Positions 2,049 to 5,747 of a stretch of DNA of 64,000 bases are shown here, piece after piece. The notes under the pieces were generated by a model. That model saw only the letters and a program-made list of their open reading frames with translations. It was not told where the DNA came from and ran no database searches. Every line of letters begins with the position of its first letter. Position 1 is the first letter of the stretch. Source of the stretch: Escherichia phage FP43; sequence record MN648445, one strand, 5' to 3'. The translations under genes and the position numbers were made by a program.

Positions 2049-2600
2049 TTACTTAAAGATATTTATAATCGCTTTGATAATAGATTTGTTTTCAAGGTCA
2101 GGGAATTTAGGGAATTCGCCGCCAAGATGTTCATGTTTTTCTAAAAGGGCAAAGAATTTTTTGAGCTCTTTAAATTTTCGTTTTTCTTCTCTATTAGCAA
2201 CCTCTGCGTCAATAAGAGAACTTAAAACACTGAATAATTTATAGAGTTCATGAATTTTCTTATCACGTTGAACTACTCGTTTATATGCTTCATCTTCCTT
2301 CCACCCGTCGTCGGTCCAAATGTCAAATTCACCAGGTTCTTCTGTAGTAACATTTTGAAGAGCACCTGGAGTGTCAATAACAATTTTTTGCTTATCATAT
2401 GTCCATACTGTTTTTCCTCGATGGTCTTCAACATATACCCATTCTTGCTCGCGTTCGTCAAATATAACAGCATAGCCTTCTTTAGGGTCTAAAGGTTTTT
2501 TTGGTGTCGAATGAGCTGGAAATCCTACGCCTTTTAATGGTTTATAATTTTCTTCTTTGTAAAATTCTTTAGTGTCAAAATAATAGTGATAGAGTTTCAT
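2049..2600 (-). CDS. 38: gp38 long tail fiber assembly protein (T4-type chaperone)
   Basis: 183 aa, same length as T4 gp38; immediately downstream of gene 37. Confidence 0.85.
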   Translation of the reverse strand: MKLYHYYFDTKEFYKEENYKPLKGVGFPAHSTPKKPLDPKEGYAVIFDEREQEWVYVEDHRGKTVWTYDKQKIVIDTPGALQNVTTEEPGEFDIWTDDGWKEDEAYKRVVQRDKKIHELYKLFSVLSSLIDAEVANREEKRKFKELKKFFALLEKHEHLGGEFPKFPDLENKSIIKAIINIFK

Positions 2601-2603
2601 ATT

Positions 2604-2625
2604 ATAAAAAGGGACAGAAGTCCCT
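2604..2625 (-). terminator. hairpin + U-tract between genes 37 and 38
   Basis: GGGAC-AGAA-GTCCC (2611-2625) followed by a T-run on the minus strand. Confidence 0.5.
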
Positions 2626-2630
2626 TCTCC

Positions 2631-5600
2631 TTATGCTAAACGAACGATATAGTTAAAAGCAACGTTTTTAACAGTGTTTTCTGTATTTCCTGTGGCATTT
2701 ACAGTTATTGTATGGCCATGGGAACCAATTGCAACAGTATGAGAATGAGCACCAATACCCACCGAATGGGTATGAGCACCAATACCTACCGTATGAGCAT
2801 GGTTACCCGTAGAGCTAGTAGTTCCTGACCAACTATGGGTGTGGGCACCGTCATTTGATGTTTTACCGACCTTAGTTGCTAAAGTCGAACCAGTGATACC
2901 TGAGTTAATTTTAGCATATGAGTTTGCACCTATCGTAGTAACCCCGTCTCTAAACAAATCGTCTGCCCATGCAGCAGTGACCTGTGGACCTGAACGCGCG
3001 TGTTGGTGAGCTCCTGCGGAACTAGTATTACCACTCACTGTATGGTTATGGTTACCAGTGGTATTACTGGTCTTAGTACCATAATCAAAGCTTGAAGTCG
3101 TTTTGCTACCGTAATCAAAACTAGAAGTGGTCTTAGTACCCAAATCTGTGTTTGATGCACTTGCACTATGGCTATGTGACTTAACACCGTCTGCTTCTGT
3201 ACTTAATACAGCGCGCCCAGATGGTTTACCCTTGATAGTTTGACCACGCATATCAGGCAGAGCGCCAGAAGGATACACCGCAGCTAACTTAGGATACAAG
3301 CCAGTATCAAATGTTTGGCCTTCCATTATGGCATAACCTTCAGGAGGTGTATCGGTAGGCCAAGGAATCGGAGCACCAATTGGGTAACTCGAGACAATAT
3401 CCGTTTTAAGGTTATTTATTGTGGTATTCAAGTTAGCAAAGTTGCCAGAACCACCAGTAATATTACCATCAGTACCGAATTGAGCATTACCAACTTTTAA
3501 TGGTTTAGTAATATCGACAGAATCAGAGTTTAATGCAATACCATGTGAATATGTGTAGCTGTGCATACGAACGACGTTGCCGCCATCTCCAATACCTAAA
3601 TACCATTTCGGAACATCTGCTTTACGTCCTTGAATGAAGTTAGAAGACTCTTGTGTTGGAGCATTTATTCTAATAGCATCTGATGCCATATTTACTGTTA
3701 TGCGTTGACCAGCCGTAGTTCCAGCCGCTTCTACTTTAAATCTACCGCCGCCGATATCTACATCATGATCCATGGAAACTTTACCAGTACTTAATGTAAT
3801 ATAGAACGGACGTAAATTAGAAATACCACCTGATTCACCAACATTCTGTGGAGTTGGAATAATATAAAGCTTATCTTCAGAACGACGGAAAATAGCCCCG
3901 TATTCAGCATCGTAAATACGGAAAGCATCAGCAGTCCCGCCAATTTTAACCTGTCCAGTAATTGAGGCACCACCTTGAACAAACAATCCATTATTCATTG
4001 TAACGTTGCCAACTAGAGTGCTTAATCCGTTAACTCTAAGACTTCCGTCGGTTATTAAGCTTCCTCTAGCATTAACCTGTCCATTGAACTGAGTTACAAC
4101 AGGGCCTGTAGTTTCAGAACCGGTCGGAGCTACGCGTTGAGAATAGAAATAATAACCTTGGCCATCAGAAACCTCAAATACGGTTTCTCGAGCTTTATCA
4201 CCAGTAGCATTAAATGAGTTACCCCATGCTTTCACGGTCACATAACTTTTGTTCTGACCTGCACGAGTACCGCCTTCCCAAAGGATTTGTTTGGTGCCAT
4301 CAATACCTGAAGCCGCTTTAAAAACTAGAGAAGCATTAGTTCCATCACCATTAAAATATAATCCATTATTAAGTTTTAACGTTTGAACAGAAGCGATGGT
4401 ACCATCAGCACGCAAATTTAACGAATTTGAACCAGTTTTAATATCTAAAATGCCAGGCTCAACAAGAAGCCCATCACCCATACTAACGGACATACGACCA
4501 GTGCCACGGAAATAGTGATACATCTTGGCATTGCTGCTATAACCAATATGAGTCTGACCGTCACCGTTATTATTACCATCAACATCGGTACGCGCAGTAA
4601 ACATTGCTTGGTTGTTATTTGGGTAATCCCAAGTAGAACCAGAATCTCGACTATAACCAACCATCAATTTTTTAGTACTGTTAATACCGTTATTAAGAAT
4701 AGTGCCGGCAGAAATACCATTCGAAACTAAATCGATAACCCCGTCACGAACCCATTTAATACCAGTATCATTGTCACCAATTGCAATACCTTTACCAAAC
4801 GAAACCAATGGATAACGTCCTTGGTCACCAACATCAGCAAGACCTATACCTATCGAATTAGCAACAGACATACGCCCATCTGTGGTATAAGACCATTGAT
4901 AAACTTCAGCATTACGTCCCGTCCAATACGAAATATTCTGTGGTTTACCTGAACGAGCATCAGCAACTTCATGGAAAATAGCAGAAGAAACATGTCCGCG
5001 GAATTTACGAAGGTAGTTTATACCATTAGTATCCAAATCTGTTTCGGTTGGAGTATAGTGCCAAGTCGGTAATGAAACTAAATCATATGCAGTATCAATA
5101 TTAGTGTCCCAAGATTTAGTGCTCACATTGATATTTTTGGTAATAACTTTAGGACCAATTAAAGAACCAGCTTTAGTTTCAATATTACTTTGAGTAACTA
5201 AATATCCATTAGATACTAATAAACTTCCGGAATCAACTTGAAAATTACCGTTTCGATTAAAAGTCCAGTATTTTGAAGTCCCGGTTTCATCAATATAATG
5301 GAATTTAAAACTACCTTCGTTTACTAATGTACCAGCAGAAAAAGTTCCATCTTTATAGCGTTGTTTAATCAGTGGATGGTATTCTGAAACAGAAGTAGTT
5401 GAACTTAAATCTGTAAAGATAGGGGCTTTATTCGAATGTTGGTTAGCCCAAGCGCCATTTCCAGTGGTTTTAGGTAAAAATTCAATGTATTTTCCTGCAT
5501 AAACAAACTGATTTCCATTGAGATTATACGTGCCGTTTTGTAAATAATCGCCAGTTTGAGTTACATTACCGTTAATATCCCCACCCTTAGCAAAGCCTAG

Positions 5601-5747
5601 GCTAATAATATTACCGAGGTCATCTTTAGTAAAAAGAGTTCGATCTTTTAAGTTTATCGCTAATTCGCCTTCGGCTAATTGTGCTGCAGTAGGATTAACT
5701 CCTGCTACTTTGCTTCTTTTAAATTGTATCTGTTTTAATGTAGCCAT
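2631..5747 (-). CDS. 37: gp37 long tail fiber distal subunit (receptor-binding tip)
   Basis: 1038 aa; C-terminal His-x-His repeats (GAHTHS, GAHSHT, GSHGHT) typical of the T4 gp37 needle; position between 36 and 38. Confidence 0.9.

Follow-up and report, generated by a model that had tools for sequence, protein, structure and literature searches.

Results

Gene 37 and its neighbours

[quoted passage not shown] The 3117-nt gene shares 99.7% nucleotide identity with the annotated long tail fibre distal subunit gene of SHSML-52-1 (a Shigella phage of the genus Mosigvirus), and 90-95% identity with its counterparts in several other mosigviruses and in Yersinia phage phiD1. In the same list, ORFs of 221, 375 and 1291 codons lie upstream of gene 37, while a 183-codon ORF (gene 38), followed by a 219-codon ORF, lies downstream, an arrangement that we take to be the order of the T4 long-tail-fibre cluster (genes 34 to 38, then t).

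Because the 183-aa gp38 belongs to the Caudo_TAP chaperones and is 67% identical to T4 gp38, the fibre is, as judged from these matches, of the T4 type rather than the T2 type, with its receptor-binding end on gp37 itself and no gp38 adhesin cap. The hairpin between the two genes was seen by direct folding of the region, and is not listed by the terminator scan; the T4 gp37-gp38 junction has a like hairpin arrangement, with a compensatory change in the stem.

Pfam matches within gp37 comprise gp37_trimer (aa 691-765) and Collar (PF07484, E 3.5e-11), the latter directly preceding the stem described below. PF03335, a tail-fibre repeat family with which many homologues are annotated, has no match in gp37 at an E-value threshold of 0.01.

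Table 1. Coordinates of gene 37, the adjoining elements and the segments of the gp37 needle (window numbering).
Feature	Coordinates	Strand	Evidence
Gene 37, long tail fibre distal subunit (1038 aa + stop)	2631..5747	-	ORF list; nucleotide identity; Pfam
Gene 38, T4-type tail-fibre assembly chaperone, not T2-type adhesin (183 aa)	2049..2600	-	67% identity to T4 gp38; Pfam Caudo_TAP
gp37-gp38 intergenic hairpin, between GGAG and gene 38 AUG	2601..2630	-	RNA fold -16.7 kcal/mol, z -3.6
Collar (D10 knob) domain, aa 791-838	3234..3377	-	Pfam PF07484; aligns to 2XGF
Outgoing (ascending) stem strand, aa 857-916; H-x-H at aa 858, 900, 914	3000..3179	-	Motifs; 2XGF/T4 alignment; boundaries drawn by analogy with T4 stem 882-931
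Two tandem 10-aa units (T4: one)	3078..3137 (3108-3137 and 3078-3107)	-	Alignment shows a 10-aa gap in T4 exactly there
Tip (head) subdomain, aa 917-968, presumed receptor-contacting cassette	2844..2999	-	Lies between H-x-H 3 and 4
Returning (descending) stem strand, aa 969-1021; H-x-H at aa 969, 983, 992, 1001, 1010	2685..2843	-	Motifs; alignment; boundaries drawn by analogy with T4 stem 960-1009
Four 9-aa His-box units (T4: three)	2700..2807	-	Unit sequences; Tandem Repeats Finder; 9-aa gap in T4
C-terminal segment returning into the collar	2634..2684	-	Nearly invariant across homologues; corresponds to T4 1010-1026

A T4-type needle at the C-terminus of gp37

The iron-binding needle of T4 is a textbook structure, solved since 2010. 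The last 289 residues of the window gp37 match PDB entry 2XGF, the solved fragment of T4 gp37 covering residues 785-1026, with a phmmer E-value of 7.1e-89, the aligned stretches being query residues 12-168 and 223-289. Eight H-x-H motifs, starting at aa 858, 900, 914, 969, 983, 992, 1001 and 1010 (window 2712-3176), account for all 16 histidines in the last 181 residues of the protein; shuffles of these residues (n = 100,000) contained a mean of 1.3 and a maximum of seven such motifs, and eight were reached in none. All seven T4 H-x-H motifs align with motifs of the window, and the extra one lies inside a 9-aa insertion. The initial annotation had recognised in the His series a T4-type iron-binding needle, and the alignment with T4 gp37 bears this out: the motifs do correspond to those of the gp37 needle.

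Every sequence-level mark of such a needle is thus present, namely H-x-H motifs on both strands, a collar, the match to 2XGF and the downstream chaperone gene, and coordination of iron by three H-x-H pairs per site, as in T4, is predicted for the window gp37. On this evidence the region is identified as the distal needle (knob, stem and tip; D10-D11) of a T4-type gp37, in a Mosigvirus phage essentially identical to SHSML-52-1. The C-terminal segment that follows the returning strand has as its T4 counterpart a stretch assigned to D10 (Islam et al. 2019). An AlphaFold2 monomer model of the last 249 aa, built on a 30-sequence alignment, was poor (mean pLDDT 54.8, pTM 0.24), as expected from an intertwined trimer.

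An old tandem repeat within the stem

Two tandem copies of the nonapeptide KTTSSFDYG are present, the first at aa 872-880 (window 3108-3134) and the second at aa 882-890 (3078-3104). The initial annotation had described such a repeat, encoded by divergent codons, at about 3069-3146; both the repeat and its codon divergence are confirmed, and the two units fall inside that interval. It had also placed the repeat just upstream of the needle, but the position, between the first and second H-x-H, puts it inside the stem.

At the DNA level, the two 10-aa units are identical at 23 of 30 nucleotides, the seven remaining positions comprising five synonymous differences and an ACT/AGC (Thr/Ser) pair. 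Where both units have the same amino acid, the codons are identical in four of nine cases, against 4.17 expected from independent draws on the gene's own codon usage; synonymous positions have thus in effect been randomised. At the DNA level, the 30-nt repeat goes unreported by Tandem Repeats Finder, whose sole report is the 27-nt His-box repeat at 2724-2801. The same diverged pair of copies is found in SHSML-52-1, HX01, S143_2 and mobillu, and since three different tip alleles occur among these genomes, the pair must be older than the tip exchanges. In 14 relatives with near-identical adjacent units, just 50% of same-residue codons match. As far as codon divergence and conservation can tell, the tandem repeat is real, old and kept at the protein level, as the initial annotation had proposed in setting aside recent slippage.

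Copies of another kind are found in a 170-kb T-even contig from IMG/VR (L001), in which the two units are identical at 30 of 30 nucleotides, with His boxes that differ; DNA-level duplication or conversion therefore happens occasionally in the family. T4 and Citrobacter phage PhiZZ23 have a single unit, the DNA of which is the same as, or close to, that of the L001 unit and of the first unit of phage F2.

Matched unit numbers on the two stem strands

In an alignment of the window protein with T4 gp37, lambda Stf and gp37 of the mosigvirus AV118, the T4 stem differs by exactly two gaps, one of 10 aa in the outgoing strand and one of 9 aa in the returning strand. The former corresponds to the second FDYG unit, and the latter to one G-A-H-x-H-x-V-G-I unit. 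The same difference is visible in the spacing of successive H-x-H motifs, which runs 32, 14, 37, 14, 9, 9 in T4, 42, 14, 55, 14, 9, 9, 9 in the window and 42, 14, 48, 14, 9, 9, 9 in lambda Stf. Between the first and second motifs, the outgoing stretch is His-free and built of 10-aa units ending in Gly (30 letters in T4, 40 in the window); the returning strand opposite is built of 9-aa His boxes (G-x-H-x-H-x-V-x-I), of which T4 has three and the window four. Relative to T4, the extra 10-aa unit and the extra His box together appear to constitute one extra rung of the stem. The initial annotation had recognised neither the repeat as a component of the needle nor the additional His box that matches it on the returning strand.

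Covariation between the strands was assessed in two partly overlapping sets of homologues, in which stems were parsed by the series of H-x-H gaps. The first set, compiled from a word-indexed protein search, IMG/VR loci and GenBank phages, contained 138 unique C-termini in 36 tip clusters. In this set, first gaps of 32, 42, 52, 62 and 72 residues pair with two, three, four, five and six trailing 9-residue gaps, respectively, and outgoing 14-aa H-x-H units always equal the returning ones in number. The single exception is a metagenomic sequence (L002, IMGVR_UViG_3300030021_000020) with two outgoing units vs. only three His boxes. Four tip clusters hold more than one stem length, and both strands are matched in each; the same tip is carried, for example, on two stems in PhiZZ23 (32; 9, 9) and in a second protein, P0002 (42; 9, 9, 9).

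For the second set, representatives of 50%-identity clusters were searched exhaustively, which yielded 105 unique sequences after parsing. The rule was obeyed in 104, with stems ranging from a first gap of 22 residues and a single 9-residue gap up to 73 residues and six such gaps, and the non-conforming sequence merely has no second outgoing H-x-H. When the first gap alone was considered, 102 of 105 sequences fitted, whereas permuted pairings gave 44 on average and at most 61. Over both sets (243 parsed sequences), outgoing 10-aa units and returning 9-aa His boxes correspond one-to-one with one exception, although the sequences compared are related and these counts are not independent events, the clearly independent coupled changes numbering approximately four to six. 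The graded series, together with the changes observed within tip families, argue for a structural constraint beyond shared history alone.

Such a constraint can be placed on the published T4 structure, in which the chain extends from the collar to the tip, reverses there and returns, yielding a six-stranded stem (Islam et al. 2019; 2022 review; Bas63 paper). The T4 stem comprises residues 882-931 (outgoing) and 960-1009 (returning), that is 50 + 50 aa on either side of a tip at 932-959, with contacts between G921 and F970 of another subunit and with G964 beside H929 (Islam et al. 2019). Seven iron ions lie along the needle axis (published T4 needle descriptions), and the Bas63 paper portrays the needle as a six-stranded barrel whose H-x-H motifs may scale in number with its length. 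In the numbering given by the 2XGF match, the two T4 contacts define an antiparallel register with i+j near 1891-1893, which places the T4 10-aa unit at 896-905 level with the returning His box around H989/H991. From the covariation and these two contacts, we infer that the repeat supplies the outgoing half of a rung that lengthens the needle, with a His box and its iron site as the returning half. Eight iron sites instead of seven are accordingly predicted for the window needle, along with a stem approximately 10 residues (roughly 3 nm) longer than that of T4. As outgoing units are 10 aa long and returning units 9 aa, a strict residue-for-residue register is impossible, and a bulge or a different coiling radius must be assumed.

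The tip and its likely receptor

The tip allele (aa 917-968) is common to 17 phage records at 94-100% identity, while the next best allele is <60% identical. Carriers include Aplg8, ATK47/48, Mizar, SA79RD, SA35RD, G53 and SHSML-52-1, as well as KAW3E185, LH01, phage 55, PNJ-6 and ST0, and were isolated on diverse STEC and Shigella hosts. By this pattern of identity, the segment between the third and fourth H-x-H motifs is recognisable as a discrete cassette.

Residues of the T4 tip have been mapped as LPS and OmpC determinants (Islam et al. 2019). The window tip is not alignable with T4 932-959, to which it bears no recognisable similarity, and conservation of the T4 determinants (e.g. I933, N937, G938, Y949) was not found in it. 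Since the tip is unalignable to the mapped T4 contacts, the H-x-H motifs give nothing on specificity: they are structural, and uninformative as to the receptor.

A better guide is provided by published receptor assignments. In a 2026 preprint, receptors were assigned for 71 of 73 Straboviridae; all 17 OmpC-specific phages carry T4-type Gp37 D10-D11 with very variable tips, and the remaining 54 with assigned porins reach porins other than OmpC through gp38 adhesins. Two mosigviruses with T4-like gp37, AV117 and AV118, depend on OmpC, as shown by their loss of infectivity on an ompC mutant, while AV122, and perhaps AV116 (both also with T4-like gp37), are apparently LPS-dependent. Literature searches for SHSML-52-1, ATK47, Aplg8, G53, ST0 and SA79RD yielded genome and host-range reports, among which we found no receptor experiment for this tip allele. 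Because published OmpC-specific Straboviridae all carry the T4-type Gp37 C-terminus, OmpC is the best guess, and the receptor is probably OmpC with involvement of LPS. The initial annotation had deduced a likely T4-like (OmpC/LPS-type) receptor from the H-x-H motifs; its OmpC assignment is a fair one given the published association with gp37 type, but the basis on which it was made falls away.

Discussion

The feature itself is already known, given that the gene is annotated in a near-identical genome and the T4 fold has been solved; the His motifs, the variable tip and the abrupt break in identity at the tip have all been published for close relatives. We did not find stated in the available literature either the explanation of the repeat as the outgoing half of a rung or the near-perfect one-to-one matching of units, both of which are modest refinements. 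Taken as a whole, the best explanation of the locus is a T4-type needle in which the repeat forms half of an extra rung, a reading to which we assign a probability of roughly 0.8.

Under this explanation, the T4-type chaperone gp38, the product of the adjacent downstream gene, would assist the folding of the gp37 needle. Within the trimer, as in T4, every chain would travel outward from the collar, build the tip and come back, giving a six-stranded stem held together at its core by iron ions, with three H-x-H pairs to each ion. In this stem, the tandem repeat of 10-aa units would be the His-free outgoing strand, lying alongside the 9-aa His boxes of the returning one. The numbers of units on the two strands would be coupled because the strands must stay in register. 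Losing just one unit would shift the strands against each other, so that protein-level selection would preserve the repeat even as its codons drift.

Other explanations of the repeat fare less well. That it arose recently by replication slippage, or is an artefact of assembly, and in either case lacks functional significance, is scarcely credible, for although L001 (identical at every position of its two units) supplies a precedent for slippage, the window copies differ at seven of 30 nucleotides with codon identity at the random expectation, the identical diverged copies recur in four independently sequenced phages, and two-unit stems are widespread, lambda Stf included. The near-identical DNA copies that recent slippage should leave are not seen (23 of 30 nucleotides, and no report from Tandem Repeats Finder), and with codon divergence and retention in four relatives both against it, this reading is rejected for the window. 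The conserved aromatic, acidic and glycine signature of the FDYG unit, and a copy number that differs among phages, might instead suggest a receptor- or LPS-binding adhesin motif, comparable to the glycine-rich motifs of T2-type gp38, with copy number tuning specificity. This we consider very improbable, and reject on grounds of stem location and conservation across unrelated tips: the repeat is in the collar-proximal stem, far from the tip that bears the mapped T4 receptor contacts; it is nearly the same among phages whose tips are unrelated and whose hosts differ (E. coli, Shigella, Serratia, Citrobacter), and in lambda; and published specificity-associated variation sits in the tip. Somewhat more weight, though still little, can be given to the view that matched unit numbers reflect only shared ancestry and whole-cassette recombination, the repeat being a tolerated spacer. 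The sequences are indeed related, double crossovers in conserved flanks would carry both halves together, and the mismatched L002 might be a viable fibre. Against this, a graded range of 22-73 residues is matched by one to six gaps, the 14-aa units are matched too, four tip families with several stem lengths are all matched, the 243 sequences (in overlapping sets) include one exception, and the stem is six-stranded and antiparallel in the published topology (50+50 residues).

With respect to the receptor, a T4-type needle could carry a tip allele directed not at OmpC but at, for example, the LPS core alone or a different outer-membrane protein, and we hold this to be the less probable case, albeit one to be taken seriously. 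The tip is <60% identical to every other allele and unrelated to that of T4, AV122 and possibly AV116 look LPS-dependent despite their T4-like gp37, and phages with the allele come from diverse STEC and Shigella hosts. What tells against it is that all 17 OmpC-specific Straboviridae in the 73-phage screen share this gp37 type, the other 54 reaching their assigned porins via gp38 adhesins, and that AV118, with the same eight-H-x-H stem and a different tip again, needs OmpC.

For annotation, H-x-H motifs identify the scaffold and not the receptor, so that a receptor should be assigned from the tip allele or by experiment. The odd-looking tandem repeat is an ordinary module from which the stem is built. 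Since outgoing units are strictly paired with returning ones, a simple rule follows for engineering or checking chimeric tail fibres (alter both strands or neither), which also flags mis-assembled or non-functional fibre genes. Divergence of the repeat's codons might itself be favoured, as perfect 30-nt repeats could be deleted by the very active recombination of T-even phages, with a one-sided deletion wrecking the stem. More speculatively, and as an idea we would not yet favour, the T4/lambda-type stem may be a quantised, length-tunable ruler of approximately two to seven matched modules (each a 10-aa unit, a 9-aa unit and one iron ion) able to bear any tip. If so, needle length, and hence reach through LPS, O-antigen or capsule, could be a host-range parameter apart from tip specificity, and length could be engineered by adding or removing matched pairs.

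Comparison with known systems

The closest structural reference is the T4 gp37 needle (D10-D11, 2XGF), with which the window protein shares the collar, the H-x-H stem, the reversal of the chain at the tip, the conserved C-terminal return strand and the downstream gp38 chaperone gene, and approximately 50% identity over the last 189 aa. T4 differs in having one 10-aa outgoing unit and one 9-aa His box fewer, seven H-x-H motifs vs. eight in the window, and a tip of approximately 34 aa between the flanking motifs, against 52 aa in the window. The lambda side tail fibre, Stf (orf-314), the gene for which is likewise followed by one for an assembly protein (Tfa, orf-194), is more similar still, at approximately 61% identity over the last 189 aa, and has the layout of the window stem (42, 14, x, 14, 9, 9, 9) with two FDYG units and eight H-x-H motifs; it differs in its tip (TSGLRMNSSGW...), its temperate siphovirus context and the N-terminal part of its fibre.

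The gp37 proteins of AV117 and AV118 resemble that of the window in their genus (Mosigvirus), their eight-H-x-H, two-repeat stem and their T4-type gp38 chaperone, but end in an unrelated 32-aa tip (SMQFVSGGTSG...), and the OmpC result obtained with these phages is therefore not simply transferable to the window allele. The long and short tail fibre tips of the Felixounavirus Bas63 share the collar, the six-stranded H-x-H needle and the small head, and differ in their distant sequences, their six or seven H-x-H motifs and their mode of attachment; the published remark relating H-x-H number to needle length fits the window stem as well. The T2/T6/S16-type gp38 tip adhesin likewise acts at the far end of the fibre to determine which porin is the receptor, but is a separate protein of approximately 260 aa with glycine-rich motifs that caps gp37, and has no equivalent in the window.

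Tip cassettes on a shared needle stem

Comparison of the gp37 tip in the window with three relatives (L084, L087 and L090) revealed at least three unrelated tip cassettes carried by different mosigviruses on the same stem DNA. Identity falls off abruptly at the H-x-H motifs bordering the tip, a pattern consistent with exchange of tips as cassettes through recombination in the conserved His-box flanks.

The tip of the closest relative, Shigella phage SHSML-52-1, differs from that in the window at a single residue, aa 929 (AAWADDLF in the window, AAWANDLF in SHSML-52-1), and nine other phage records contain a tip identical to the window's. The first stem unit also differs between the two phages, at aa 866, reading SASASSTDLG in SHSML-52-1.

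Coordinates of the gp37 and spacer features compared
Feature	Position	Strand	Remark
gp37-gp38 spacer	2601-2630	minus	30 nt, between gp37 stop and gp38 start
gp37 tip	2844-2999	minus	aa 917-968
Tip residue differing from SHSML-52-1	2961-2963		aa 929
Difference from SHSML-52-1 in first stem unit	3150-3152		aa 866

Unusual stems and fibre-related proteins

In one IMG/VR locus (L001, IMGVR_UViG_2706795401_000001), two outgoing 10-aa units match at 30/30 nt while the His boxes paired with them differ at 5/27 nt, a disparity that suggests a recent conversion or re-duplication affecting one strand of the stem only. A 10.5-kb metagenomic contig (L002, IMGVR_UViG_3300030021_000020) encodes two outgoing FDYG units and just three His boxes (H-x-H spacing 42,14,55,14,9,9), the sole such case among the sequences found; it could have arisen by recombination on one side or be an artefact of chimeric assembly, or its fibre could be defective. 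In a further variant, found in Escherichia virus TH58 (L091) and two proteins (P0185, P0201), the first gap is 41 rather than 42 residues; every 10-aa unit of TH58 is of the TDLG type and none is FDYG, yet its stem still contains four His boxes.

Escherichia coli chromosomes encode four proteins of ∼350-400 aa (P0035, P0108, P0109, P0116) that combine a Pfam match to the terminase large subunit (PF05876) with Collar and tail-fibre repeat domains. One of these, P0116, is present on 480 contigs. The four look like a fusion or rearrangement within a widespread cryptic prophage.

The gp37-gp38 spacer

The spacer preceding gp38 comprises, in order, GGAG, a hairpin (GGGAC-UUCU-GUCCC), a U-rich stretch and the AUG, with a predicted RNA folding energy of -16.7 kcal/mol (z -3.6). 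The T4 spacer is arranged in the same way around the hairpin GGGGC-UUCG-GCCCC, relative to which the stem change in the window is compensatory, from G-C to A-U. The layout resembles the known one of T4 gene 38, in which a hairpin draws a distant Shine-Dalgarno sequence near the start codon.
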